Of a stretch of 22,545 bases of DNA, positions 4,496 through 15,447 are shown piece by piece. A program made the translations under genes and the position numbers. Below the pieces are notes generated by a model that saw nothing but the letters and a program-made list of their open reading frames with translations, was not told where the DNA came from and searched no databases. Origin of the DNA: a virus (taxonomy: Duplodnaviria; Heunggongvirae; Uroviricota; Caudoviricetes); the IMG/VR virus record IMGVR_UViG_2778261065_000029, positions 1-22,545 of that record. One strand, written 5' to 3'. Positions within the stretch are counted from its first letter, which is position 1, and every line of letters begins with the position of its first letter.

Positions 4496-4792
4496 GCCGC
4501 TTCCCTCTGCCCATCAATCCGATCCGCCAGATCCCAGCGGGCGATAATTGCCATTGCCTCGCGACGGTAGGCATCCATAAGTTCTTCGAACTCAGGGCTG
4601 TCTTTAGCTGCCTCCAGCACTTCCTGGCGAACGCCTTTGCCTGTTACACCGTCAAAAGTTGAGGCCAGTTGATGAAGCCGGATGCTATCAATCAGTTCAA
4701 CTTGTCGGTCATATAGCTGTTCTGACAGGCGGTAGTCCTTGTCGAATGCCAGCATGATTTTTTGAAGATTTTTCTGCTGATTAACGTTCATA
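4492..4792 (-). CDS. Hypothetical protein (99 aa) immediately upstream of the exonuclease in the operon
   Basis: ATG at 4792 preceded by GAGGTGGG; track start GTG 4797 judged less likely. Stop overlaps the exonuclease start (ATGA). No clear similarity to lambda Gam from memory. Confidence 0.5.
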
Positions 4793-4798
4793 CCCACC

Positions 4799-5833
4799 TC
4801 AATATTTGATATACGCGTCCTGCACTTTGCCGCCAGCGATAGCCAACATTGCTTTCTGCGCGAATTCTTCGGGAATGCCTTGGGCTATCAGATCTGCGAT
4901 TACTCTGCTGTTAACGGTACGGCGATGCTCTTTATCTGCAGCTCGGCGCGATTCTTCGTCGGCGATACGCTTCTGTTCGTCAAGGCGGGCTTTTTCTGCC
5001 GCCTCTTGGCGTCGGCGTTCCTCGGCAACGGCTTCTTCTTTTTCGCGTCGTGCACGCTGCTCTGCTTCAATTCGCTGACGTTCTGCTACTTCAGCACGTG
5101 CTTTTTCTTCCGCCGCCAGGCGTTCCGCAGCCTCAATTTCAGCTTTCGCTTTTTGTTCAGCTTCGAGCCTGGCCTGTTCAGCAGCTTCCCGGCGGATATT
5201 CTCTTCTCGCTCAATGCGCGCTTTTTCCTCCGCTTCTTTGCGAAGTCGCTCCAGCTCAGCGGCTTCATGCTCGCGTTTTTGAGCTACTGCGAGTGATTCT
5301 TCCAGTTTCTGGATGGTTGAATCCTTGGCTACTCCAGCTTCTGCTGCGTACTCCTGCCAACTTTCATCAAGTGCTACTGATTTAGCCTCTTGAATTCGTT
5401 CCTGAATATCAGATGATGGCAAGTAGTTTCCGGAGAGATCGATCACGTCAGCTAGTGCTCGCAAATTTGTCAGGCGTTGTTGCAGTGCTTCAGTGCGTAA
5501 TTTCTCCGCATTTTCCCACTCGGTGAGTGGGCGGCGTACTTCATCACGAAGCCGATCGCATTCGGTTACGAAGCGTCGTAACTCTGCTTCAACTACTTTC
5601 GGCTGTTCTTTCAGGCGTTTCAGATAATCACGTCCTGGTTTTTCTACCGCTGTTTTACTTCTTGAAACCTTCGCAGCCAGAGATGCAATGCGCTTTCTGC
5701 CTTTGTCTGTGCTAATGTCAGGCACTTCATTAACACCTTCACGGATCTGCTCGAGAAACTTTTCCAGCCCTTTTTCAACGTAAATTCTTGGTGCCATGTC
5801 TGGTGTGATTTCGATGATTGATAATTCACTCAT
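4799..5833 (-). CDS. Phage coiled-coil protein with a C-terminal E/A/R/K-rich (TolA-like) low-complexity repeat
   Basis: 344-aa ORF. Residues ~190-300 are almost entirely E/A/R/K/Q heptad-like repeats (EAEQKAKAEIEAAERLAAEEKARAEV...), visible in the DNA as GC-skewed repetitive sequence at ~4960-5290. Confidence 0.6.
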   Translation of the reverse strand: MSELSIIEITPDMAPRIYVEKGLEKFLEQIREGVNEVPDISTDKGRKRIASLAAKVSRSKTAVEKPGRDYLKRLKEQPKVVEAELRRFVTECDRLRDEVRRPLTEWENAEKLRTEALQQRLTNLRALADVIDLSGNYLPSSDIQERIQEAKSVALDESWQEYAAEAGVAKDSTIQKLEESLAVAQKREHEAAELERLRKEAEEKARIEREENIRREAAEQARLEAEQKAKAEIEAAERLAAEEKARAEVAERQRIEAEQRARREKEEAVAEERRRQEAAEKARLDEQKRIADEESRRAADKEHRRTVNSRVIADLIAQGIPEEFAQKAMLAIAGGKVQDAYIKY

Positions 5834-5991
5834 TTGCTAACCTCCTCCCATATCTCGTTATCGTTGGCCACATCGCGAGCTTCTTTGCTGACGAAAGCCC
5901 ACTTAATGCCTTCCTGTAAGGTGCGGAACTTCCAGCTCATGAATCCGCATGCAGTAACGCAGTACCAACCGTTGATGATTTTCCACTGCAT
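5830..5991 (-). CDS. Small ORF (53 aa), first gene of the leftward early operon; not in the supplied track (below size cutoff)
   Basis: ATG at 5991 preceded by GAGGTAAC; TGA stop overlaps the ATG of the next gene (ATGA). Trp/Cys-rich hydrophobic N-terminus (MQWKIINGWYCVTACGFMSW). Confidence 0.3.
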   Translation of the reverse strand: MQWKIINGWYCVTACGFMSWKFRTLQEGIKWAFVSKEARDVANDNEIWEEVSK

Positions 5992-6010
5992 AACTTGTTA
6001 CCTCGGTCTG

Positions 6011-6025
6011 TTACCGTTGAGGTAA
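6011..6025. promoter_or_regulatory. Operator-like palindrome TTACC-GTTGA-GGTAA (PL-like region)
   Basis: Perfect 5-bp inverted half-sites with a 5-bp spacer; one of nine copies of the same motif in intergenic regions. Confidence 0.5.
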
Positions 6026-6053
6026 TAATTATGCGTATCTGGTTTGATGTCAA
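6026..6053 (-). promoter_or_regulatory. Candidate PL-like promoter for the leftward early operon
   Basis: Minus-strand perfect -35 TTGACA (plus coords 6048-6053) with an A/T-rich TAATTAT -10-like element ~16-17 bp downstream. Flanked by operator copies at 6011-6025 and 6073-6087. By-eye prediction only. Confidence 0.3.
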
Positions 6054-6072
6054 TAGATATGAGTTAAAAAAA

Positions 6073-6087
6073 TTACCCGTTAGGTAA
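6073..6087. promoter_or_regulatory. Operator-like palindrome TTACC-CGTTA-GGTAA
   Basis: Second motif copy, upstream of the candidate PL -35 element. Confidence 0.5.
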
Positions 6088-6100
6088 TCGAATAGGCAAT

Positions 6101-6123
6101 AAAAAAGCCGCCATAAGGCGGCT
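6101..6123 (-). terminator. Intrinsic terminator downstream of the repressor gene
   Basis: Minus-strand hairpin AGCCGCC-TTAT-GGCGGCT followed by a U6 tract, about 20 nt after the repressor stop codon. Confidence 0.6.
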
Positions 6124-6144
6124 TACTTACTGAAAAATATGATT

Positions 6145-6729
6145 TTATTGTTTGTTTTTTTCGTTCTGGTTGATGACAAATTCAATGTAACTTTCGATCT
6201 TTGCCTTCTCTGTTTCAGGTAACAATGCGTAGCGCGAGCGGTCATAGTTGATAGTTGCAGGGTCATGCGGATGAATCAGTAGTTCATATCCGTGACGCCC
6301 GAATGCAGATGCAACATTCTCCAGGGTGGAAATGGAAACGCTGACCTCATTGTTTAACAGGCGGCTGATTGTCACCTGGGCGACGCCGGATGCGCGGTGA
6401 AGTTTTCCCTGTGTTGAAAGGTCGCGGCTTTCGCTCATCCAGCGTTCCAGGTTGTGAGCCGCCAGCTGACCAATGTCGCTTGGGCCGACAGGCTGAAAAC
6501 CTTCCTGAGAAAGCGAGCGATCGATATCAAGCCAGTTACGGGGTTTATTGGCGGCAGCTTCAATTTTTCGCGCAACCTGGTCGCCGATAACCTTCTTGCC
6601 AAGAGCCCAGCGGTTTACCAGATTTGCCTGAGTTCCAAGTTTTTCTGCCATCCGCGTCTGAACACCATTGAATTCACGGTCGATCAAGTCGTTGAGATTT
6701 TGCCTGCGGACGTCCTGGATACTTTTCAT
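6145..6729 (-). CDS. CI-like immunity repressor candidate with two HTH motifs and no LexA/S24-type peptidase domain
   Basis: 194-aa ORF divergent from a Cro-like gene across an operator-rich region. HTH-like segments QTRMAEKLGTQANLVNRW and RASGVAQVTISRLLNNEVSVSISTLENVA. No Ala-Gly cleavage site or Ser/Lys dyad context recognisable. Confidence 0.6.
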   Translation of the reverse strand: MKSIQDVRRQNLNDLIDREFNGVQTRMAEKLGTQANLVNRWALGKKVIGDQVARKIEAAANKPRNWLDIDRSLSQEGFQPVGPSDIGQLAAHNLERWMSESRDLSTQGKLHRASGVAQVTISRLLNNEVSVSISTLENVASAFGRHGYELLIHPHDPATINYDRSRYALLPETEKAKIESYIEFVINQNEKNKQ

Positions 6730-6784
6730 TTTCTGGAAAATCGCCTCATATATGAATCAGTAGATGATTCAATTTAAAGCAATA

Positions 6785-6799
6785 TTACCCAACAGGTAA
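6785..6799. promoter_or_regulatory. Operator-like palindrome TTACC-CAACA-GGTAA (immunity region, site A)
   Basis: Perfect half-sites in the repressor/cro intergenic region. Confidence 0.5.
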
Positions 6800-6801
6800 A
6801 T

Positions 6802-6816
6802 GCACCTCATAGGTAA
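6802..6816. promoter_or_regulatory. Degenerate operator copy gcACC-TCATA-GGTAA (immunity region, site B)
   Basis: One half-site mismatched; centre 17 bp from site A. Confidence 0.4.
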
Positions 6817-6822
6817 CTATCC

Positions 6823-6858
6823 TTGATTTTTGTTACCTTATGGGTGAATATTTATTAT
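6823..6858 (+). promoter_or_regulatory. Candidate PR-like promoter for the Cro-like gene
   Basis: -35-like TTGTTA (6830-6835) and -10-like TATTAT (6853-6858) with 17-bp spacing; alternative TTGATT/GAATAT pair. By-eye prediction only. Confidence 0.3.
6833..6847. promoter_or_regulatory. Degenerate operator copy TTACC-TTATG-GGTgA (immunity region, site C), overlapping the candidate PR spacer
   Basis: Lies between candidate -35 TTGTTA (6830-6835) and -10 TATTAT (6853-6858) elements. Confidence 0.4.
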
Positions 6859-6883
6859 CTGAAATAAATATCAGGCAATAGCT

Positions 6884-7114
6884 ATGAGCGATAACGGACA
6901 TTTCGATTTCAAAAAGCACTGGCTTGCACTTACTCCGGATGAGCGTGAAGCCTTCGCACAGGAAGCCGGAACGACGAGTCACTATATCCAGACTCACTTA
7001 ACAGGTAAGCGAAAAATGCCAGGTAAAGTATTGATGAATGGGCTTTTTAAAGCCTGTAAAACAAGACAATGGCTGCGCTCAAAAGCAGAACTGGCATACT
7101 TCTTCTACTCATGA
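6884..7114 (+). CDS. Cro-like / YdaS-type small HTH regulator
   Basis: 76-aa ORF divergent from the repressor. HTH-like segment EREAFAQEAGTTSHYIQTHLTGKRKMP resembles Cro/YdaS-type phage regulators (from memory). Confidence 0.5.
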   Translation: MSDNGHFDFKKHWLALTPDEREAFAQEAGTTSHYIQTHLTGKRKMPGKVLMNGLFKACKTRQWLRSKAELAYFFYS

Positions 7115-7136
7115 TATCCAGCTACAACCCTCTGTA

Positions 7137-7160
7137 GACCGCCATCCGGCGGTCTTTTCA
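7137..7160 (+). terminator. Intrinsic terminator after the Cro-like gene
   Basis: Hairpin GACCGCC-ATCC-GGCGGTC followed by TTTTCA. Confidence 0.5.
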
Positions 7161-7169
7161 TATCTATTC

Positions 7170-7184
7170 GTACCTTAAAGGTAA
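7170..7184. promoter_or_regulatory. Operator-like palindrome gTACC-TTAAA-GGTAA upstream of the replication genes
   Basis: Motif copy placed right after the Cro terminator and before the next operon. Confidence 0.45.
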
Positions 7185-7264
7185 TAAAAAACCAAATCTG
7201 GTTGATCTTTTTTTTGTGTCAGCACAAAATAACCGTAATCCCAATACTAATAACAGGGCTTACC

Positions 7265-7465
7265 ATGGAAATCATTACACGTATTGATGCCGCAAAGCGC
7301 GGACTTAAACGCTACTACACCGGAAAACCATGTAAGCACGGACATGACAGTGAACGCTGGGTTTACAACGGACACTGTGTTGAGTGCACCATGGAATCAA
7401 ACCGTCGCATTAGGGCAGAGATTAAGCAGATCATGATTAATTCCTCCCCACAACATTCAAGCTGA
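7265..7465 (+). CDS. Small Cys/His-containing protein (possible zinc-binding regulator), function unknown
   Basis: 66-aa ORF from an internal ATG (MEIITRIDAAKRG...) with the pattern CKHGH...CVEC. The track's longer N-terminal extension lacks support. Confidence 0.45.
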   Translation: MEIITRIDAAKRGLKRYYTGKPCKHGHDSERWVYNGHCVECTMESNRRIRAEIKQIMINSSPQHSS

Positions 7466-7480
7466 TAGCGGAGATTAATC

Positions 7481-8272
7481 ATGAGCAGACATGCAACAGA
7501 TTGGGCCTGGGAGACAGATCCAGGCAGCTCATCATTAAAGCTCATACTGCTCTCGATGGCTGACAGAGCCGATGAATATAACCTCTGCTACCCCAGCATA
7601 GAACGCCTCGTTAAAGACACTTGCCTGAATAAAAAAACCGTGCAGGCCGGGCTTATATCGCTCATGAAAATGGGGCTTATTTCAGATACCGGAGAGAGAA
7701 AGGGAGCGACGAAAAGAGTGCGGGTTTTCTCTCTTAATATAACCAAAAACGGGAACATTAAAGGCAACCGGGAAGGGAGTAATGAACCCGAAAACGGAAA
7801 TGTTACCGAAAACGGGAATATACCCAAAAACGGGATGTTGAATGATCCCAAAAACGGGATCCAGAACCAGTCATATAACCAGTCATTTAACCAAGAGAGG
7901 GGGAGCAGGACAAAAACCGGGGATTCTGTGCCTCATGACCCCGGCGCAAACAACGCCGTGATGAATAACTTTGTTCCTCCTGGTGGGCCAGGGCAATTAG
8001 GCAAATTTGTCATGCATGAACAATGGCAACCATCAGATGACTTTCTTCGGAAAAGCTCATTGCAGGGAATCTACCTGGACAGTCTGCCAACGGCACAGGA
8101 ACTTGCAGAGTTCAGAATTTACTGGATGGCTGAGGGTAAGGCATACCATCAGGCACAGTGGGAGCAGAAGCTGGCAAGGCGGCTGCAGATTAGCAGACAG
8201 AAGCAATCAACATTACCTGATAACAACGTTCCGCACTGGAACAGCCCTGAAGCGTGGGAGGATTTCTTGTGA
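7481..8272 (+). CDS. Replication initiator: N-terminal winged-HTH domain fused to a C-terminal DnaT-like domain
   Basis: GGAG ribosome-binding site 7 nt upstream. C-terminal KFVMHEQWQPSDDFL...EFRIYWMAEGKAYHQAQWEQKLARRLQ closely parallels the E. coli DnaT C-terminus as recalled (KFAMYPDWQPDADFI...[27 protein letters not shown]). Central linker is N/G/K-rich repeats. Confidence 0.75.
   Translation: MSRHATDWAWETDPGSSSLKLILLSMADRADEYNLCYPSIERLVKDTCLNKKTVQAGLISLMKMGLISDTGERKGATKRVRVFSLNITKNGNIKGNREGSNEPENGNVTENGNIPKNGMLNDPKNGIQNQSYNQSFNQERGSRTKTGDSVPHDPGANNAVMNNFVPPGGPGQLGKFVMHEQWQPSDDFLRKSSLQGIYLDSLPTAQELAEFRIYWMAEGKAYHQAQWEQKLARRLQISRQKQSTLPDNNVPHWNSPEAWEDFL
7743..7859. repeat. Five iteron-like direct repeats CC(G/C)AAAACGG(G)A inside the initiator gene (candidate origin)
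   Basis: Copies start at about 7743, 7788, 7806, 7823 and 7847, spaced 17-45 bp; they encode the KNGN peptide repeats. Confidence 0.5.
7865..7895. repeat. Tandem 12-bp repeats AACCAGTCAT(A/T)T (two good copies plus a degenerate third)
   Basis: AACCAGTCATAT AACCAGTCATTT AACCAAG... immediately following the iteron block. Confidence 0.45.
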
Positions 8273-9054
8273 ACAACGTTTTTACCGCGATACAAAACCG
8301 TGACGGAGAAGCCCTTTCTCGCATGTCAGGTTATGAGCATCAATACGTCAACAATGACAATGTGGTGAACATGTCAGCAGAGAGGCTTGTTGATGCCCTT
8401 TTCAAACAGCTGAAACAACTGTTTCCGGCGGCAGTAGTAACCAACCTGAAGACGCCAGAGCAGGAAGTTGCTGCAAAACAGCAGTGGATTGCTGCGTTTG
8501 CCGAAGGTGGGATCCGAACCCGTGAACAGGTTTCTGCTGGTATGCGCCACGCTCGCGCCAGTGAGTCTCCGTTCTGGCCGTCGCCAGGGCAATTCATCAA
8601 GTGGTGTAAAGACAGCAAGATGGTTCTTGGCGTCACCATTGACGATGTGATGGCGGAGTTTCACCGGTACAGCAAGGAAAAAAGTTTATATCCTGGTGGT
8701 CCCGAAAGATTCCCGTGGCGACATCCGGTTATGTACTGGGTCGTATGTGATACCCGCCGTGCAATGTATCAGCGCCAGCTTAGCGAGATTGAGGTTGAGA
8801 AACACGCGCGCAGGCTGCTCGATGATTGGGCGAAAAAGGTGGCTTCCGGACAGCAGATACCCGATCCGGTGATCAGCATACAGGCAAAGCCAGAGCCCAT
8901 GAGTACGCCTCCGGACACAGGGAGAGACGTTTACCATCCACCAGGGCGAAGTTTCGGGTGTATGCCTAACGCCGCCACCCTGGGGGGAATAACACCGGCG
9001 CAGTGGCTAATGGAGGAATACAGGCGGGGAAAGGCGGCAGGATTTATCAAGTAA
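8269..9054 (+). CDS. Lambda P-like replicative helicase loader
   Basis: Segment QQWIAAFAEGGIRTREQVSAGMRHARASESPFWPSPGQFIKWCKD parallels lambda P (RRQWVLAFRENGITTMEQVNAGMRVARRQNRPFLPSPGQFVAWCRE, from memory). GTG start overlaps the initiator stop (GTGA), with GGGAGGA upstream. Confidence 0.75.
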   Translation: MNNVFTAIQNRDGEALSRMSGYEHQYVNNDNVVNMSAERLVDALFKQLKQLFPAAVVTNLKTPEQEVAAKQQWIAAFAEGGIRTREQVSAGMRHARASESPFWPSPGQFIKWCKDSKMVLGVTIDDVMAEFHRYSKEKSLYPGGPERFPWRHPVMYWVVCDTRRAMYQRQLSEIEVEKHARRLLDDWAKKVASGQQIPDPVISIQAKPEPMSTPPDTGRDVYHPPGRSFGCMPNAATLGGITPAQWLMEEYRRGKAAGFIK

Positions 9055-9059
9055 TACCA

Positions 9060-9080
9060 GCGCGATAGCGCATTTTTTTA
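9060..9080 (+). terminator. Weak terminator-like hairpin after the P-like gene
   Basis: GCGC-GATA-GCGC followed by ATTTTTTT; stem of only 4 bp. Confidence 0.3.
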
Positions 9081-9091
9081 CGTCTCAATAA

Positions 9092-9106
9092 TTACCTATA
9101 AGGTAA
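9092..9106. promoter_or_regulatory. Operator-like palindrome TTACC-TATAA-GGTAA
   Basis: Perfect copy upstream of the DUF1064 operon. Confidence 0.5.
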
Positions 9107-9153
9107 CAAAATATTCTAAACTCTATTGATTTAGTGTCTTATGTGGTTTTTAA

Positions 9154-9168
9154 TTACCTCAGAGGTAA
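9154..9168. promoter_or_regulatory. Operator-like palindrome TTACC-TCAGA-GGTAA overlapping the ribosome-binding site of the next gene
   Basis: Perfect copy ending 3 nt before ATG 9172; its GAGGT half doubles as the Shine-Dalgarno sequence. Confidence 0.5.
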
Positions 9169-9171
9169 ATC

Positions 9172-9519
9172 ATGAGAAAACAGATACAGGCTCTTGGTCG
9201 ACTCAAAACAGGCCAGATGAACAAAACAGAATCTGCGTATTGCCAGCACCTTGAGCAGCGTAAACGTGCAGGGGAAATCGCCTGGTATCGATTCGAGGGT
9301 ATCAAGCTGCGGTTAGCTGACAACACGTTCTATACGCCCGATTTCGCTGTGATGCTCGCCACCGGCGAGATGGAGCTGCACGAAGTGAAAGGGGGATTCT
9401 GGACCGATGACGCCAGAGTGAAAACCAAAGTCGCCGCAGATCAGTATCCGTTCCGAATCATCGGGGTAACGGTTAAGCCAAAGAAAGCAGGTGGTGGCTG
9501 GAACATCGAAGAGTTCTGA
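9172..9519 (+). CDS. DUF1064-like phage protein
   Basis: 115-aa ORF with the pattern YTPDF...HEVKG and a basic N-terminus, matching my recollection of DUF1064 family proteins. Confidence 0.55.
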   Translation: MRKQIQALGRLKTGQMNKTESAYCQHLEQRKRAGEIAWYRFEGIKLRLADNTFYTPDFAVMLATGEMELHEVKGGFWTDDARVKTKVAADQYPFRIIGVTVKPKKAGGGWNIEEF

Positions 9520-9580
9520 ATCGACGATCTTTTTAGTTATCAATGTAATCAATAAGTTATGTGGATAAGCGAGGGTAAAG

Positions 9581-10420
9581 ATGGAAAGTAATATCAAAGG
9601 GTTAGTTTCCGCCGGGCATGAGATGGCTTCGGAACTGAAAGCAGAATGTGGTGCCGTTGATATGCGCAGTGTGGCAAAGCTGATCAGCGATTTGGCAACG
9701 CAACTGGAAGTGCAACTGGTGCGTGCTAATGCGCAGGACGAAGACAACCAGAGAGCCATTGAGTCAATTAAACAGGCTGATTCGGCTGTTAAGTTGGCAC
9801 ACGAGAAGTTTTCGGCGCTGGCGGCGAAACGTGCAATTCCAGCAATGGAACGCCTGTTAATGTTGCCAGCTGATGATGATTTGTTAAGTGAACAGGAACT
9901 TAAAGATTACGGTGTGGATATTGATGCGCTCAACGCCTTCAAATTTCTGGCCGGACCAGAAACCGTGCTGGCACTACTGGATGAACGGGAAAGAAACCAG
10001 CAATACATCAAACGCCGTGACCAGGAGAACGAGGATATTGCGCTAACGGTAGGGAAGCTGAGAGTTGAGCTTGAGGAAGCAAAATCAAAACTCAACGAGC
10101 AGCGTGAGTATTACGAAGGTGTTATCTCGGATGGAAGTAAGCGCATAGCAGAACTGGAAGCGCGGGAAATAAAACCAGCCAAAGGTGAAGTTCTGGTCGT
10201 TGTATCTGGTTTTACTGGTTGCGGAAAAAGCGCCATTGCCGGGGAAATAGAAATCGCGATGAAGGCTATTGGTGTACCGGTTAAGTGGACTAATGGCGAT
10301 GCAGAAAAGCGCATGACTGGCGCTGACTGGCTGACTGCGATTGAGATGTACAAACCAACTGTGCGCATCGTGGAAGTTAATGTGCCCCGCGCCGCTGGCA
10401 TTCGCATCAAAGGAAAGTGA
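9581..10420 (+). CDS. Hypothetical coiled-coil protein with a C-terminal P-loop-like motif (GFTGCGKS)
   Basis: 279-aa ORF with GAGGG ribosome-binding site. Central E/K-rich coiled-coil segment and C-terminal VVVSGFTGCGKSAIAGE resembling a Walker A motif. Confidence 0.55.
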   Translation: MESNIKGLVSAGHEMASELKAECGAVDMRSVAKLISDLATQLEVQLVRANAQDEDNQRAIESIKQADSAVKLAHEKFSALAAKRAIPAMERLLMLPADDDLLSEQELKDYGVDIDALNAFKFLAGPETVLALLDERERNQQYIKRRDQENEDIALTVGKLRVELEEAKSKLNEQREYYEGVISDGSKRIAELEAREIKPAKGEVLVVVSGFTGCGKSAIAGEIEIAMKAIGVPVKWTNGDAEKRMTGADWLTAIEMYKPTVRIVEVNVPRAAGIRIKGK

Positions 10421-10421
10421 T

Positions 10422-10643
10422 ATGGCTAACTCATTACTTGAAACCTGCAACAACTGGCAGATTCAGAGGGCGGAGATTTTATCTCGCAATCCAGATATGG
10501 CAATGACAATCGATAATCTGGATACGCTAATTGAACGTACCGTGCGTTCTGCAATTGATATAGCACGTCGAGTTGACTGGGATTTCAGAGAAGCGGAGCG
10601 GCTTGCTAAAGAGCAGGAGAAAGCAGCGGGTAAAGGAGACTGA
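10422..10643 (+). CDS. Hypothetical protein (73 aa)
   Basis: ATG at 10422 with AGGAAA upstream, 1 nt after the previous stop. Track ORF 10341..10643 trimmed to this start. Confidence 0.45.
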   Translation: MANSLLETCNNWQIQRAEILSRNPDMAMTIDNLDTLIERTVRSAIDIARRVDWDFREAERLAKEQEKAAGKGD

Positions 10644-10644
10644 T

Positions 10645-10842
10645 ATGGATAAAAACACCACTGCTTACTGGAATCTGTCACTTGATACCGAATGCCCAAA
10701 ATGCGGTCACAATTTCGATCTGCTTTGTGATGCTGATTTCTGGGAGTTTTCTGGAGCTAAACAGGCATGTGAAGAAATAAAAGGTTACGAAACATGCTGT
10801 CCAGAATGTAACCATGAATTTAAAACAGATTTCGTGTATTGA
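10645..10842 (+). CDS. Small zinc-ribbon protein (two CxxC pairs)
   Basis: 65-aa ORF with AAAGGAGA ribosome-binding site; CPKCGH...CCPECNH motif. Confidence 0.45.
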   Translation: MDKNTTAYWNLSLDTECPKCGHNFDLLCDADFWEFSGAKQACEEIKGYETCCPECNHEFKTDFVY

Positions 10843-10852
10843 GGCATAACAA

Positions 10853-11638
10853 ATGACCACTATTACCAGAGAACAGGCACAGAAAATTATTGAAGCAGCC
10901 GATGAGGTTATTAGTGCGCTGGCCGGAACTAACGAGGATGTTCACCCTGGTAGCGATAACATGCTACGCCTGTGGGATGACCTGAATGACCGTTACGCGC
11001 CGCCGGAAGTTGTGCGTGAGCTGGCGCGTATCGTGCTGGCATCGCTGGAAGCAGAACCAGTTGCTTATATTTTCAAACATCCGGCCGGGAAATTATTCTG
11101 GGCTTTAACGGATGAAAGCAATAAAGAGCAAGCGGACGTTATTCCTGTTTATGCTGCCGCGCCTGCGTCGGTTGTGCCGGATGATGCATCAGGGTCGCTT
11201 GCTTATGCTTACAAAGAGCTTACGCCTGAGATTATGCGCGGTCATATCGCTGTATTCGAGCGATATGGAATAGCCCCAAACGATAGCATTACCACAATTC
11301 AGGCACTGCGAATCGCGCTGGATGGCATAGAGCGGAGCGACGCCATGCTTCATGGTGCCGAACCCGTAAGCCAAACTTACAAGTTGAACGAGCTATTTGG
11401 CAACTATCCGGCAACTCCGGATAGTTGGATAAGCTGTAGTGAGCGAATGCCGGAAAAGAACAAGAACGTGCTTATTTCGGTGAATTTCGACAGCTCTCTG
11501 GTTGAACCGCTAATATGCTCCGCACGCTATACCGGAAGCACATTCCGGCGAGGAGAAGCAACGATTAAGCCGGGTAATGGTATTGAGCAGGCAACTCACT
11601 GGATGCCGCTACCGGAACCGCCGCAGGAGGTGAAGTAA
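10853..11638 (+). CDS. DUF551-domain phage protein
   Basis: 261-aa ORF whose C-terminal region (SERMPEKNKNVLIS...THWMPLPEPP) matches the DUF551 pattern as recalled. Confidence 0.6.
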   Translation: MTTITREQAQKIIEAADEVISALAGTNEDVHPGSDNMLRLWDDLNDRYAPPEVVRELARIVLASLEAEPVAYIFKHPAGKLFWALTDESNKEQADVIPVYAAAPASVVPDDASGSLAYAYKELTPEIMRGHIAVFERYGIAPNDSITTIQALRIALDGIERSDAMLHGAEPVSQTYKLNELFGNYPATPDSWISCSERMPEKNKNVLISVNFDSSLVEPLICSARYTGSTFRRGEATIKPGNGIEQATHWMPLPEPPQEVK

Positions 11639-11760
11639 TGAACAAGTGCAACGCTCTGCTTTATGCCATGGTGATTGGTTTCGGCCTGGCTGCTGGTATC
11701 CGGGTTTATATTGCCTGGGAGTCATTAATCAATCTGGCGTGGAGTGCGATTCGTGGCTAA
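11638..11760 (+). CDS. Small hydrophobic (single-TM-like) protein, 40 aa; not in the supplied track
   Basis: ATG overlaps the upstream TAA (TAATG) with a strong AGGAGG ribosome-binding site. Sequence MNKCNALLYAMVIGFGLAAGIRVYIAWESLINLAWSAIRG. Confidence 0.35.
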   Translation: MNKCNALLYAMVIGFGLAAGIRVYIAWESLINLAWSAIRG

Positions 11761-12091
11761 ATCCCCCGCAGAACGCAAAGCCGCGCAGCGCGCTCGGCAG
11801 TCCGCCGCCGGTGAGCGCAAAATTGAACTGGTGCTGGATAAGCAGGAGCAGGAAATGCTGGAGCGTAACTGTGCCGCCCGTCGCCCTGGTCGTGCGCCGT
11901 ATGAAATGAGCGAATACATCGCGTTACTGATCCGCCAGGATGATGCACGCGTGCGCGGGCGTATAAAATCGATCAGCAGAAAACGTTGCGGTAAGTGCGG
12001 CGAGAGAGTTCCAGTTAATTCATGCCCGTGTAATGGTGACTCGCAATGCTGGGTGACTAAAGGCTGGCATGAAACGAAATTAATAGTGTGA
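11753..12091 (+). CDS. Basic small protein with a C-terminal Cys cluster; candidate late-gene regulator
   Basis: GTG start at 11753 with GGAG 8 nt upstream. Arg/Lys-rich N-terminus (AERKAAQRARQ) and C-terminal CGKCGERVPVNSCPCNGDSQC. It is the last gene before the terminator and terminase module. Confidence 0.45.
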   Translation: MAKSPAERKAAQRARQSAAGERKIELVLDKQEQEMLERNCAARRPGRAPYEMSEYIALLIRQDDARVRGRIKSISRKRCGKCGERVPVNSCPCNGDSQCWVTKGWHETKLIV

Positions 12092-12099
12092 CATGTCAC
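12088..12099. repeat. Perfect 12-bp palindrome GTGACATGTCAC (copy 1), overlapping the stop codon of the preceding gene
   Basis: Exact palindrome; identical copy at 14353-14364 (shared 14-mer TGTGACATGTCACG). Confidence 0.6.
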
Positions 12100-12140
12100 G
12101 AGTAGATTATGCATGATGAATTTGATGGATTTTGAATACT

Positions 12141-12166
12141 GCCGCCAACTATGGCGGCTTTATTTT
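12141..12166 (+). terminator. Intrinsic terminator upstream of the terminase genes
   Basis: Hairpin GCCGCCA-ACTA-TGGCGGC followed by TTTATTTT. Confidence 0.55.
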
Positions 12167-12170
12167 GCAT

Positions 12171-12202
12171 GGTACTATTACCACAACGGTAACTATTACC
12201 AC
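12171..12202. repeat. Direct repeat GGTA(A)CTATTACCAC x2 immediately upstream of the terminase small-subunit start
   Basis: GGTACTATTACCAC (12171-12184) and GGTAACTATTACCAC (12188-12202). The second contains GGTAA-N3-TTACC, the operator half-sites in inverted order. Confidence 0.45.
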
Positions 12203-12209
12203 GGTGGTT

Positions 12210-12806
12210 ATGATGCCTGCTGAACCTAAAACCTATAAACGCAAATCAACGCAATTTAAGCCGCTCACAGCAATGCAGGAGGCTTATTGCCAGTCATACA
12301 TCAAAACGCCTGAAAACCAGACTCAGGCAGCGATTAACGCAGGATTCTCCCCAAACACAGCGGCAGTTAAAGCCAGTGTCATGATGCGCGATGAACGCAT
12401 TCAGAAACGGATTGCCGAGTTGATGGAGGAGCGCAACAAACGAATGCGCGTCAGTGCTGATTACGTTCTCATGCGCCTGGTGGAGATCGACCAGATGGAC
12501 GTGATCGACATCCTCAACGACGATGGGAGCCTTAAACCAATCCGTGAGTGGCCGAAAATCTGGCGCACTACGCTTAGTGGCTTTGATCTGTCGTCGACCA
12601 TCATGAACATGAACGAGGATTCGATAGAGACAATCCTCAAAAAAATTAAATGGCCTGACAAGGTGAAGAACCTTGAGCTGATTGGTAAGCATGTTGATGT
12701 CAACGCGTTCAAAGAACGTCTGGATGTTAATGTGAATGTGACAATTGCTGATCGCATAGCAGCAGCCAGGAAGCGACTCAAAGAACGTCAGGATGGTAAT
12801 CAGTGA
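12210..12806 (+). CDS. Terminase small subunit (Terminase_2-like)
   Basis: Pattern LTAMQEAYCQSYIKTPENQTQAAINAGFSPNTAAVKASVMMRDERIQKRI is typical of small terminase DNA-binding domains. Start placed at ATG 12210 (GGTGG upstream), not the track's 12132 extension. Confidence 0.7.
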   Translation: MMPAEPKTYKRKSTQFKPLTAMQEAYCQSYIKTPENQTQAAINAGFSPNTAAVKASVMMRDERIQKRIAELMEERNKRMRVSADYVLMRLVEIDQMDVIDILNDDGSLKPIREWPKIWRTTLSGFDLSSTIMNMNEDSIETILKKIKWPDKVKNLELIGKHVDVNAFKERLDVNVNVTIADRIAAARKRLKERQDGNQ

Positions 12807-14278
12807 CAGATACAGCGTTATCTCCTGAAGAGCAGTTGATCGAGGATATTGCAGGGTTCACTCACGATCCGCTTGGCTATGCCCTCTATGCGTTCCCGTG
12901 GGGGGAAGAAGGGACTGAACTGGCACATGCTACCGGCCCACGTCAGTGGCAGGCTGATGCGTTCCGAGAGATACGTGATCACCTGCAGAATCCAGCGACG
13001 CGCTATCAGCCGCTTATGCTGGCACGCGCTTCTGGTCACGGTATTGGTAAATCCGCATTCATCTCAATGCTGATCAACTGGGGCATGTCCACTTGCGAGG
13101 ATTGTAAGGTCGTGGTGACCGCCAACACCGACAACCAGCTACGAACGAAGACCTGGCCGGAAATTATCAAGTGGTCGAACCTTGCTATCACGAAAGACTG
13201 GTTTACCTGTACCGCTACCGCGATGTACAGCAATGATCCTGGGCACGACAAGCGGTGGCGAGCTGACGCAATCCCCTGGTCTGAGCACAACACTGAGGCA
13301 TTCGCCGGACTACACAACGAGCGCAAACGCATCATCGTGGTATTCGATGAAGCGTCGAACATTGCGGATCTGGTGTGGGAAGTTGCTGAGGGTGCGCTTA
13401 CGGACGAAGACACTGAGATTATCTGGGTGGCGTTCGGAAACCCTACACGTAACACCGGGCGTTTCCGCGAATGTTTCCGCAAATATAAACACCGCTGGAA
13501 AACTGCGCAGATTGACAGCCGGACGGTGGAAGGCACTAACAAACAGCAGTTGCAGAAATGGGTTGATGACTACGGGGAAGACAGCGACTTCGTTAAAATC
13601 CGTGTGCGCGGCATATTCCCGGATGCATCTGAATTGCAGTTTATCCCTACCGGACTTACTGACGAGGCAATGAAACGGGTGGTAACCGCTGCGCAGGTTG
13701 CACATGCTCCGGTGATAATCGGCGTTGACCCGGCATACTCCGGCGTTGATGACGCTGTGATATACCTGCGGCAGGGGCTGCATAGTAAGGTGCTGTGGAC
13801 CGGCAACAAGACCACTGATGATCTGATTATGGCGAAGCGTATCGCTGACTTTGAAGACCAGTATCAGGCTGACGCGGTGTTCATCGACTTCGGTTACGGT
13901 ACCGGGCTGAAGTCAATCGGTGACGGTTGGGGGCGCACATGGCAACTTGTTCCGTTCGGTGGCGCGTCTACTGACCCGCAGATGCTCAACAAGCGTGGGG
14001 AGATGTTCAACTCATGCAAGACATGGCTGAGGCTGGGCGGCATGCTGGATGACCAGGAAACAGCGGACGACCTGTCGGCGGCAGAGTACAAAGTTCGAGT
14101 GGACGGTAAAATCGTTATCGAACCGAAGGAAGATATCAAGGAGCGGCTTGGGCGTTCGCCGGGTAAAGGCGATGCGCTACTGCTGACGTTTGCGTTCCCT
14201 GTGTCTAAGCGTCTGCGAATTCCCGGGCAGCAGAACCAGCAAGGCAAGGCCATTACAGATTACGATCCCTATGCTTAA
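12803..14278 (+). CDS. Terminase large subunit (ATPase plus nuclease)
   Basis: 491-aa ORF with Walker A-like ARASGHGIGKS, a Walker B-like IIVVFDEAS, and C-terminal acidic nuclease-type motifs (VIIGVDPAYSGVDD, DAVFIDFGYG). GTG start overlaps the small-subunit stop (GTGA). Confidence 0.85.
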   Translation: MTDTALSPEEQLIEDIAGFTHDPLGYALYAFPWGEEGTELAHATGPRQWQADAFREIRDHLQNPATRYQPLMLARASGHGIGKSAFISMLINWGMSTCEDCKVVVTANTDNQLRTKTWPEIIKWSNLAITKDWFTCTATAMYSNDPGHDKRWRADAIPWSEHNTEAFAGLHNERKRIIVVFDEASNIADLVWEVAEGALTDEDTEIIWVAFGNPTRNTGRFRECFRKYKHRWKTAQIDSRTVEGTNKQQLQKWVDDYGEDSDFVKIRVRGIFPDASELQFIPTGLTDEAMKRVVTAAQVAHAPVIIGVDPAYSGVDDAVIYLRQGLHSKVLWTGNKTTDDLIMAKRIADFEDQYQADAVFIDFGYGTGLKSIGDGWGRTWQLVPFGGASTDPQMLNKRGEMFNSCKTWLRLGGMLDDQETADDLSAAEYKVRVDGKIVIEPKEDIKERLGRSPGKGDALLLTFAFPVSKRLRIPGQQNQQGKAITDYDPYA

Positions 14279-14328
14279 TCCGTTAGCGGGGATAATGACG
14301 GAGATATCCTCTGGTGAGGATAAAACAA

Positions 14329-14348
14329 AGCCAGCTCATCGGCTGGCT
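14329..14348. terminator. Bidirectional terminator between the convergent terminase large subunit and the minus-strand ORF
   Basis: Hairpin AGCCAGC-TCATCG-GCTGGCT with T-rich sequence on both flanks (GTTTGT on plus, CTTTGTTTTAT on minus). Confidence 0.5.
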
Positions 14349-14352
14349 GTTT

Positions 14353-14364
14353 GTGACATGTCAC
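14353..14364. repeat. Perfect 12-bp palindrome GTGACATGTCAC (copy 2)
   Basis: Identical to the copy at 12088-12099; lies between the stop of the minus-strand ORF and the terminator hairpin. Confidence 0.6.
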
Positions 14365-14368
14365 GGTG

Positions 14369-14740
14369 TTATTGCTCGCTTAACTTCTGCTTCAGCAAGT
14401 AACCTTCAAGCATCCAGATTTTGTTTACAGCATTCTGCCGGGCAATCTTCCGACCAATTTCCGCATCAAAGTTTTCCGGGCTTGCACAGGCGCTCTCTCC
14501 GGTGACGGTGAAGCCATTGCGCAGCACCAGAACGCAGAACGTCAGCAGAGAAAGTGATTCGTGCGGCTGGTAGTTTACCTCTCCGCCAGTATGTTTCGCT
14601 TTTATGGCTACGCCAAAGATACCATCTTCTGCTGTGAAATATGCCTCCTGAGCAATAATACTCTCGATATGGTCTGGCGTAACGCGCGGCGCGGCTAAAC
14701 CTTTAGCCTGAATTTCAGATTCAATGTCTTTGTCACTCAT
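14369..14740 (-). CDS. Hypothetical protein (123 aa) in a reverse-oriented cargo locus
   Basis: ORF opposite to the flanking terminase and head genes, with AAGGTGAG ribosome-binding site. Weak, unverified recollection of a Gp49/Gp66-like phage family. Confidence 0.55.
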   Translation of the reverse strand: MSDKDIESEIQAKGLAAPRVTPDHIESIIAQEAYFTAEDGIFGVAIKAKHTGGEVNYQPHESLSLLTFCVLVLRNGFTVTGESACASPENFDAEIGRKIARQNAVNKIWMLEGYLLKQKLSEQ

Positions 14741-14756
14741 AGTCTAATCTCACCTT

Positions 14757-14780
14757 AAAAAAATGCCCGGCGAACCGGGC
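14757..14780 (-). terminator. Terminator/attenuator-like hairpin plus U7-8 tract directly upstream of the ribosome-binding site of the 123-aa ORF
   Basis: Minus strand reads GCCCGG-TTCG-CCGGGC then A, a U7 run and AAGGTGAG...ATG. About 16 nt separate the U-tract from the start codon. Confidence 0.4.
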
Positions 14781-14864
14781 GAACTGGAAGCAATGAGTTA
14801 TGCCTTCCGTGGCTGTACTGGTTTACAGCATGAAGCCATCGCAATGGCGTCCTGCTGTAAAAAG

Positions 14865-14900
14865 GGCGGTGATAGTCCTTCAAGGGAAACCATCACCGCC
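14865..14900 (-). terminator. Possible hairpin/terminator downstream of the tRNA
   Basis: 9-bp inverted repeat GGCGGTGAT...ATCACCGCC with a ~18-nt loop, followed on the minus strand by CTTTTTAC. Confidence 0.25.
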
Positions 14901-14943
14901 AAGCCCCTGGAACTTCTGGCATCACGGTCCTTAGGCGTGATTC

Positions 14944-15020
14944 TGGCGTGGCATGCAGGATTCGAACCTGCGACCGACCGCTTAGAAGGCGGTTGCTCTG
15001 TCCAACTGAGCTAATGCCAC
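14944..15020 (-). tRNA. tRNA-Arg (anticodon UCU), argU-like, with encoded CCA
   Basis: Minus-strand 77-nt sequence GTGGCATTAGCTCAGTTGGACAGAGCAACCGCCTTCTAAGCGGTCGGTCGCAGGTTCGAATCCTGCATGCCACGCCA folds as a cloverleaf: 7-bp acceptor stem GTGGCAT/ATGCCAC, D-arm GCTC/GAGC, anticodon stem ACCGC/GCGGT with loop CUUCUAA, T-arm GCAGG-TTCGAAT-CCTGC. Near-identical to E. coli argU apart from stem substitutions (from memory). Confidence 0.85.
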
Positions 15021-15342
15021 AACGCTGAGAGCACTTAGCCTGTTAAGGCGCCACACTTTGTCGCGGCTCCATAAATGCTCTCATCGTTGCACCCTCGTCT
15101 CTTCCGAGGCGTCACACCGAATCGCCGGGATGGTGAATCCCCGTGCGCGGAATAAAACCGCTCGACTTGCACATTCCGGCTACCTGGTTCGTTTGCCCGA
15201 GCAAGGGAGGGTGCCCATTAAACGTATCCAGACCGCTATCGGCGCATGTGCCATACGCCGTACTGCTCAAAATAAAATCTCACTCCACCTGTTCAATTTA
15301 ACGACAAGCCAGTCAGGTTAATAACAGGAATGCACTCTCTGC

Positions 15343-15357
15343 TTACCTGAAAGGTAA
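15343..15357. promoter_or_regulatory. Operator-like palindrome TTACC-TGAAA-GGTAA upstream of the head-gene operon
   Basis: Perfect copy about 90 bp upstream of the first head-module ORF; GGTAATAATT is repeated again at 15415-15424. Confidence 0.45.
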
Positions 15358-15447
15358 TAATTCGTGCGTTAAATGTCAACTGTCTACGATAAATAAATCA
15401 TATGTGGTTAAATTGGTAATAATTTAATTGCGTACGGAGTCATTGAT

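Follow-up and report, generated by a model that had tools for sequence, protein, structure and literature searches.

Eleven copies of the 15 bp palindrome TTACC-N5-GGTAA were found in a stretch of phage DNA of 22,545 nucleotides (IMG/VR virus record IMGVR_UViG_2778261065_000029, positions 1 to 22,545; the whole stretch is referred to as the window). As judged from sequence comparisons, these palindromes are probably operators of the phage's own repressor, Rep, which would front every transcription unit and repress each of them directly. By megablast, the whole window was assigned to the phiV10/epsilon15 group of temperate podoviruses (genus Uetakevirus) and is 97-98% identical to phiv142-3, PAS61, ZX5 and phiV10; window position 12092 corresponds to phiV10 coordinate 1. 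In order, it carries the integrase gene, whose start is window position 1, a leftward recombination/regulator operon, rep, a cro-like gene and the replication genes. A nin-like block comes next and is followed by the terminase genes, a leftward tRNA-Arg and cargo gene, and the head and tail genes. Motif statistics, site positions, conservation and the family identity of the repressor were computed.

Seven exact copies of the palindrome (starting at 6011, 6073, 6785, 9092, 9154, 12178 and 15343) were obtained, compared with 0.00 expected from 100 dinucleotide shuffles. Three further copies differ by one mismatch (6833, 7170 and 12196) and one by two (6802), giving 11 sites in six regulatory regions of the window. 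A previous reading of the window from its letters alone (the sequence-only reading) had listed nine copies; all nine were recovered, but two had been missed, the exact copy at 12178 and the one-mismatch copy at 12196, both upstream of the small terminase gene (terS). That every copy is intergenic was borne out for the enlarged set, as all 11 sites are non-genic although non-genic sequence makes up 7.9% of the window (P ~1e-11, calculated on the ten sites that are exact or carry a single mismatch). The remaining ten two-mismatch matches are all coding and at chance level (expectation ~6 +/- 2.4), and the 48.5 kb genome of phage lambda contains no exact copy. The wider consensus is a palindromic 17-mer, ATTACC-N5-GGTAAT. 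A weight matrix built solely from the sites of epsilon15, Tyrion and BUCT711 was then scored on the window and gave 15.8-25.8 bits for nine of the sites, 9.8 for 12196 and 8.4 for 6802, against 5.5 bits for the next match in the window and a mean maximum of 7.9 over shuffles.

Every relative that was compared, namely epsilon15, PAT1 and SPC32H (Salmonella), Tyrion (Enterobacter), BUCT711 (Klebsiella) and phiv142-3 (E. coli), carries the same palindrome at orthologous positions. Per complete genome, counts of ~15 sites were obtained against ~0.6 expected in part of these phages, and the rest have them at equivalent positions. Two sites lie exactly 62 bp apart at PL (63 bp in BUCT711), where the Salmonella and Klebsiella phages have one more, and two sites upstream of the nin-like genes are again exactly 62 bp apart. 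Three sites spaced 17 and 30-31 bp occupy the rep-cro region, and a degenerate one follows the cro terminator. A pair of sites spaced 18 bp precedes terS, a single site precedes gp3/portal, and one or two are found between ant and tailspike; single one-mismatch sites precede the lysis genes and int. In the epsilon15 record (AY150271.2), seven protein_bind features named 'repressor / lysogeny' are annotated, each of which is a TTACC-N5-GGTAA palindrome at the orthologous position.

In alignments of diverged intergenic regions, the islands of identity are the operator arms, the -35 and -10 hexamers and the terminator stems, with the sequence between them free to vary. A population sample of 70-76 IMG/VR contigs encoding a 100%-identical Rep gave the same picture within the lineage: the arms are invariant, the central 5 nt occur in 14 to at least 20 forms, and the 62 bp spacing survives nearby indels. 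Invariant arms around a drifting centre are the signature of a protein that reads two 5 bp arms. Special diversification of the operator centres was considered and rejected, as variation in the central 5 nt is similar in extent to that at other intergenic positions free of constraint.

The positions of the sites relative to putative promoters were then compared. Scans for consensus promoters and intrinsic terminators returned counts at chance level (11 vs 10.9 and 12 vs 10.4 expected), and the promoter calls therefore rest on cross-genome conservation rather than on the scan. The putative PL promoter (TTGACA-17-AATTAT, 6025-6053, minus strand) matches the scan consensus at 10/12 positions, and its -35 and -10 elements are conserved in five genera-spanning genomes. 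Its proximal operator TTACCGTTGAGGTAA (6011-6025) begins, read on the minus strand, with the T that is the last base of the PL -10 element and is centred at about +1; its arms are kept in 68/70 contigs. The distal operator (6073-6087) is situated 62 bp from the proximal one, centre to centre, and 18 bp downstream, in the direction of PL, of the intrinsic terminator of rep (6105-6124, minus strand; annotated in phiV10), which thus precedes both PL operators. Its arms are invariant in 71/71 contigs, whereas the central 5 nt occur in 14 variants.

Between rep and the cro-like gene, the operator at 6785-6799 overlaps the presumed PRM -35 element (TTTACC, minus strand, 6800-6795) and is invariant in 76/76 contigs. 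The PRM promoter itself (TTTACC-17-TTAAAT, 6772-6800, minus strand) is purely putative and includes a conserved ATTTAA block. The degenerate middle operator GCACCTCATAGGTAA (6802-6816) follows 17 bp from 6785, just upstream of the presumed PRM -35; its orthologue is an exact copy in epsilon15 and SPC32H. The third operator (6833-6847) is placed within the core of the putative PR promoter (TTGATT-17-GAATAT, 6823-6851, plus strand), in the spacer between the -35 element (6823-6828) and the -10 element (6846-6851). The PR -35 is conserved in five genomes, and the scan gave an alternative register for this promoter. Downstream of the cro-like gene, the half-degenerate operator GTACCTTAAAGGTAA (7170-7184) is found 15 bp after an intrinsic terminator (7136-7155, plus strand; terminator scan and phiV10 record) and upstream of a putative replication-unit promoter (TTGATC-17-CAAAAT, 7202-7230, plus strand), both hexamers of which are conserved in five genomes. 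In 76 contigs the right arm of this operator is invariant and the left arm variable, and the +1 position of the promoter carries a half-site only.

The layout at the nin-like genes is exactly that of PL: a terminator, operator 9092, a promoter and operator 9154. The weak terminator after the replication genes (GCGC-GATA-GCGC followed by T7, 9060-9078, plus strand) is annotated in phiV10 and conserved in five genomes, and the distal operator (9092-9106), with invariant arms and at least 20 central variants among IMG/VR contigs, starts 14 bp past its T-run. The putative nin-like promoter (TTGATT-17-TTTAAT, 9126-9154, plus strand) is conserved in the five-genome alignment. The proximal operator (9154-9168) abuts its -10 element (TTTAAT, 9149-9154) and includes GAGGT, the Shine-Dalgarno sequence for the gene that begins at 9172, an overlap already recognised in the sequence-only reading. 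Before the terminase genes, the first terS operator (12178-12192) stands 20 bp past the intrinsic terminator that ends the early-right operon (12141-12158, plus strand; terminator scan and cross-genome alignment). The second, degenerate terS operator TTACCACGGTGGTTA (12196-12210) follows at 18 bp; the ribosome-binding site of terS and its start codon (ATG at 12210/12213) overlap with it. The lone operator at 15343-15357 occupies the junction between the leftward tRNA/moron slot and the rightward head genes. The orthologues of 12178 and 15343 are annotated as repressor sites in epsilon15 (12-27 and 2931-2947, respectively). Overall, an intrinsic terminator is located 14-20 bp upstream of four operator clusters, and the earlier statement that each operon is preceded by a terminator and its own operator-bearing region holds for four units.

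Operators 9154-9168 and 12196-12210 both contain the Shine-Dalgarno sequence of the first gene of their unit, nin-like and terminase, respectively. As a matter of speculation, read-through RNA would fold the operator palindrome and mask the ribosome-binding site, while a transcript starting inside the operator would not.

The rep gene (6145-6729, minus strand) encodes an immunity repressor of 194 aa with an N-terminal helix-turn-helix (HTH) domain, a middle HTH-like dimerisation domain and a C-terminal helix for tetramerisation and binding of the antirepressor Ant. Rep is a full-length homologue of SPC32H Rep (PDB 5d50_A, E 4e-42, residues 1-190), is 42-100% identical to annotated Uetakevirus repressors, and is 100% identical to ZX5 ORF21 and the phiV10 repressor. 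Pfam returned HTH families only (including HTH_3) and no Peptidase_S24 domain in Rep. SPC32H Rep is described as a protein of three domains, for DNA binding (N-terminal), dimerisation (middle) and tetramerisation (C-terminal); it binds palindromic DNA in tetrameric form, and Ant releases it without cleavage (PMC9638917; PMC9986798). When set against the published structure (PMC9986798), the aromatic residues of the tetramer interface are retained in the Rep of the window. Across genera the N-terminal domain is 54-56% identical, compared with 36-37% for the remainder, and the stretch NLVNRW..G.K.IG..AR.IE is invariant; such a conserved recognition region agrees with an operator that has stayed unchanged. 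Overexpression of the ZX5 repressor abolished free phage and lowered holin and endolysin mRNA by 99.97-99.99% (PMC9782041).

No Ant homologue was found within the window; the ant locus lies outside it. In phiv142-3, the closest complete genome, the Ant homologue Orf7 (region 4758-4830 of that genome) is 87% identical to SPC32H Ant, and its gene is preceded by a perfect LexA box CTGTATAAATATACAG. A Rep operator stands ~40 bp from this box, where the tail-fibre and ant genes diverge. A larger second 'anti-repressor' gene follows the Ant gene in phiv142-3, with operators on both sides.

What we infer from these observations is that Rep binds these very sites, which sequences are promoters, that loops form and how the late units are repressed. 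In a lysogen, Rep would bind ATTACC-N5-GGTAAT at the start of every transcription unit and repress each directly. At PL and the nin-like promoter, an operator that starts at the last -10 base and is centred on the start site would exclude RNA polymerase, and the centre of a second operator is exactly 62 bp upstream, just past an insulating terminator. This geometry would fit one tetramer, or paired dimers, on both sites with the promoter in a small loop. The three rep-cro operators (spaced 17 and 31 bp) over PR and the PRM -35 would repress PR and let rep regulate its own expression. One or two operators are present at each of the terminase, head, tail-fibre and lysis units, beside weak promoters that are probably activator-dependent. 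Upon induction, the LexA-controlled Ant, encoded outside the window, would free Rep from all sites at once. Rep would hold every unit shut in the lysogen, and after induction other factors probably set the order of expression.

Several points weigh against control of each unit by Rep. Near the head and terminase sites there is no good sigma-70 -35 element or convincing promoter, and occlusion is not evident there. Operator 15343 could instead control a leftward promoter, as a possible TTGACA-17-TACCTT on the minus strand overlaps it; the spacer length of this promoter is conserved and its sequence is not. A search for relatives with a different immunity specificity showed the same palindrome in use with every homologue from the phage database, down to 42% identity, and an IMG/VR scan for divergent repressors returned 100%-identical ones only. 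With one operator specificity in all relatives found, there is no co-variation of repressor and operator to compare. The Cro-like protein may share the Rep sites. A literature search on phiV10, Uetakevirus and SPC32H, with the primary epsilon15 and SPC32H papers outside its reach, yielded no paper defining operator sites and no footprint, gel shift or chromatin immunoprecipitation for the motif, and the epsilon34 paper contains nothing on epsilon15 operators. The mechanism of Rep repression has also not been extensively characterised structurally (PMC9986798).

Given that the late sites have no adjacent consensus promoters and that four operator clusters stand 14-20 bp past intrinsic terminators, one of them weak (4 bp stem), the distal and late sites might chiefly stop read-through polymerase, with Rep still as the binder. 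Repressors that stop elongation at dispersed sites, termed stoperators, are known from cluster A mycobacteriophages (PMC9283540). Such a roadblock would have no need of the conserved 62 bp pairing, and the sites at PL, PR and the nin-like promoter overlap well-conserved core promoter elements in fixed register, which points to control of initiation. In addition, the Rep sites are palindromic, whereas stoperators are asymmetric and orientation-dependent, and on balance we regard a predominant roadblock function as unlikely. A different binder would be the Cro-like protein (6884-7114) or the PHROG 536 protein (11744-12091), in which case not all copies of the motif would belong to the Rep regulon. 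The Cro-like protein matches a 'transcriptional repressor' family, Cro shares the operators of the repressor in lambda-type switches, and several further regulators are encoded in the window. The epsilon15 record, however, attributes the sites to the repressor, the N-terminal recognition region of Rep is invariant wherever the motif is conserved, late genes are silenced by overexpression of Rep (PMC9782041), and half-sites 10 bp apart, centre to centre, suit the paired HTH domains of a Rep tetramer. We therefore consider it very unlikely that one of these two proteins is the main ligand of the palindrome.

Less probable still is cross-regulation by the host through the E. coli antitoxin MqsA, which was raised as a speculative possibility in the sequence-only reading on account of ACCT-N3-AGGT cores and would make the sites a means of modulating the prophage. 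The published MqsA site, AACCT-N3-AGGTT, shares this inner core (PMC4894380), and the core is present in 5/11 sites of the window, but there it falls on non-conserved positions: the bases that create ACCT/AGGT are central positions that vary freely in the population. The outer bases differ as well, since every site has TACC where MqsA sites have AACC. The full AACCT-N3-AGGTT is without a match in the window, and 6/11 sites lack even the inner core. Furthermore, the motif is equally conserved in phages of Salmonella, Klebsiella and Enterobacter, where it tracks the phage Rep, and MqsA is not among the PDB matches of Rep; the proposed link thus did not hold up, and a role of MqsA is extremely improbable. 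No greater credit can be given to the idea that the palindromes bind no protein and are recombination junctions of mosaic modules or RNA hairpins that mask ribosome-binding sites. Exactly at operator 15343, homology to PAT1 and 65FD of Salmonella sets in again, and sites 9154 and 12196, which overlap Shine-Dalgarno sequences, would form RNA hairpins of 5-6 bp. The module boundary at 15343 is simply explained by the variable moron slot ending there, and most sites have no start codon nearby. Conserved arms, a free centre, fixed -10/-35 register and the conserved 62 bp pairing are instead features of recognition of DNA by protein. An Rfam search matched the tRNA alone, giving no known RNA element at the operator sites.

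The palindromes thus have the properties of operators of one repressor and stand at the 5' ends of the transcription units of the window, namely PL, PRM/PR, post-cro/replication, nin-like, terminase and the head/moron junction, although this does not constitute a new kind of arrangement. The sequence-only interpretation is largely upheld, and its central idea had been recorded before for these phages: the epsilon15 record annotates it, and there are precedents in P1 and cluster A mycobacteriophages. What is new may be the detail, that is, the strictly conserved pairs of sites that flank promoters at 62 bp and two extra conserved palindromes, AACCA-N4-TGGTT and GTGACATGTCAC. Neither the 62 bp geometry nor the extra palindromes are annotated in the records examined. 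A family-wide 'insulated unit', consisting of a terminator, a distal operator at about -62, a promoter and a proximal operator or half-site at about +1, with a Rep tetramer clamping a micro-loop of ~62 bp and with the two extra palindromes as sites of undescribed regulators, is put forward only tentatively and is somewhat doubtful.

Control by Rep operators is also unlikely to be the only regulation, since at least four other transcription regulators are predicted in the window: the Cro-like protein, a PerC-like activator, an AlpA-like protein and a PHROG 536 protein. Rep is therefore unlikely to be the sole controller. The earlier remark that no N-like gene is visible amounts to absence of evidence only. 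The Cro-like gene (6884-7114, plus strand, 76 aa) is divergent from rep and encodes a homologue of epsilon15 gp39 that matches PHROG 35 'transcriptional repressor' with E 5.6e-13. The PHROG 536 'transcriptional regulator' (11744-12091, E 4.6e-54) is conserved and is encoded by the last gene of the early-right operon. The N-terminus of the protein resembles a ribbon-helix-helix and its C-terminus is rich in Cys (CGKCG...CPCNGDSQC); searches of Pfam, NCBIfam and PDB gave no match to the protein. As the head and terminase regions lack a good -35 element, a positive late regulator is likely, and the PHROG 536 gene, situated just before the late genes, is a candidate.

The palindrome AACCA-N4-TGGTT (core ATAT[G/A]TGGTT) is found in the window at 7190-7203 and 15396-15409, and at 9139 in the spacer of the nin-like promoter. 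In phiv142-3 it is located at 1985, 4718, 5097, 23604 and 31890. Its copies lie from a few to ~40 nt from Rep operators in the post-cro, head, tail-fibre and lysis regions. When up to one mismatch was allowed, phiv142-3 gave seven matches compared with 1.45 expected, a number reached in 0/100 shuffles. The palindrome may form part of late promoters or be bound by a second regulator. The perfect palindrome GTGACATGTCAC (core TGACATGTCA) is present at 12089-12098 and 14354-14363, at the 3' ends of operons beside intrinsic terminators. Two to four copies were found at equivalent places in every Uetakevirus genome checked and none in lambda, with a window expectation of ~0.02-0.04.

Upstream of the gp3/portal genes, a block of ~65 bp (15374-15440; GTCAA..CTACG..AAATAA..ATATGTGGTTAAATTGGTAATAATTTAAT..CGTACGGAG) is near-invariant in phages of E. 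coli, Enterobacter, Salmonella and Klebsiella, with conservation far above that of the adjacent coding DNA. It holds a GGTAA half-site centred 62 bp from operator 15343. When the block was sought at other late operons, only its ATATGTGGTT core recurred. Just outside the window, a conserved operator-like site with one mismatch (TTACCYTAAAGGTAT in most genomes) is found ~45-70 bp upstream of int (epsilon15 26882, PAT1 10746, Tyrion 28568, SPC32H 26960 and phiv142-3 39129), where it adjoins the integrase arm sites annotated in epsilon15. Rep may control int too.

The terminase genes are separated from the head genes by the leftward cargo slot (14369-14740 and 14944-15020, both minus strand), the content of which varies among relatives. 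Its contents in the window are, in that order, a gene of the Phage_gp49_66 family (Pfam E 2.4e-35), which weakly resembles the anti-CBASS protein Acb4 (9e4w, E 0.007), and a tRNA-Arg(TCT). A LexA-box-like sequence, CTGTACTGGTTTACAG, is present at 14813-14828, 73 nt upstream of the Acb4-like gene; it is weak evidence, because CTGT-N8-ACAG occurs twice in the window, close to chance.

The immunity region (5990-7270) was found at 95% identity or higher in 541/5,426 complete E. coli genomes, and at least 80 IMG/VR contigs encode a repressor of 100% identity. As the region is common in E. coli, a correct operator map has practical value. An O157 reporter phage, phiV10, and a serotype-converting phage, epsilon15, are among the relatives, and the map of 11 sites, which opens no new question, would be of use for engineering or silencing such prophages and as annotation. 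An antirepressor-sensitive tetramer before every unit would explain the joint release of early, late and cargo genes on induction.

Among the related phages, epsilon15 has the same palindrome upstream of terS and gp3/portal, at PL and in the nin-like region; its repressor is homologous, and the same 62 bp pairs are present. It has in addition a tailspike site, which is outside the span of the window. Its record annotates seven of ~15 sites and lacks the three at PRM/PR, the proximal one of the nin region, the second one before terS and the one at the lysis genes, while the record of phiV10, which represents the E. coli lineage of the window, contains no operator annotation. The post-cro site is more degenerate in epsilon15 than in the window, and its Rep is only 42% identical overall. 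SPC32H, for which structures of Rep-Ant are available (PDB 5d50, 5d4z), shares the domain order of Rep and the operator set; it differs in that ant is not inside the window.

Like lambda with CI/Cro (OL1-3 and OR1-3), the window has a divergent repressor/cro pair, three operators over PR/PRM and an operator-controlled PL. In contrast to lambda, and in line with the sequence-only reading, the operators of the window are not confined to PL and PR but are also found at the post-cro, nin-like, terminase and head regions. Rep lacks the S24 autocleavage domain, and the Rep tetramer is controlled by an antirepressor. The PL operators of lambda are adjacent triplets, whereas those of the window are paired sites 62 bp apart.

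With P1 C1, which binds its operators as a monomer, the window shares one repressor that directly controls many scattered operons and an inactivation of the antirepressor type. In P1, 22 C1 operators, which are asymmetric 17-mers, are distributed across the genome, and C1 is inactivated by a protein antirepressor and not by RecA cleavage (PMC8546580). The sites of the window are by contrast palindromic and go with a tetrameric Rep, and no sequence relationship between the two systems was detectable. The stoperators of cluster A mycobacteriophages (L5, Bxb1 type) are likewise asymmetric and monomer-bound and act on elongation (PMC9283540). They resemble the window in having many repressor sites throughout the genome beyond the early promoter, whereas the proteins are unrelated and the sites of the window are symmetric and in register with promoter elements.

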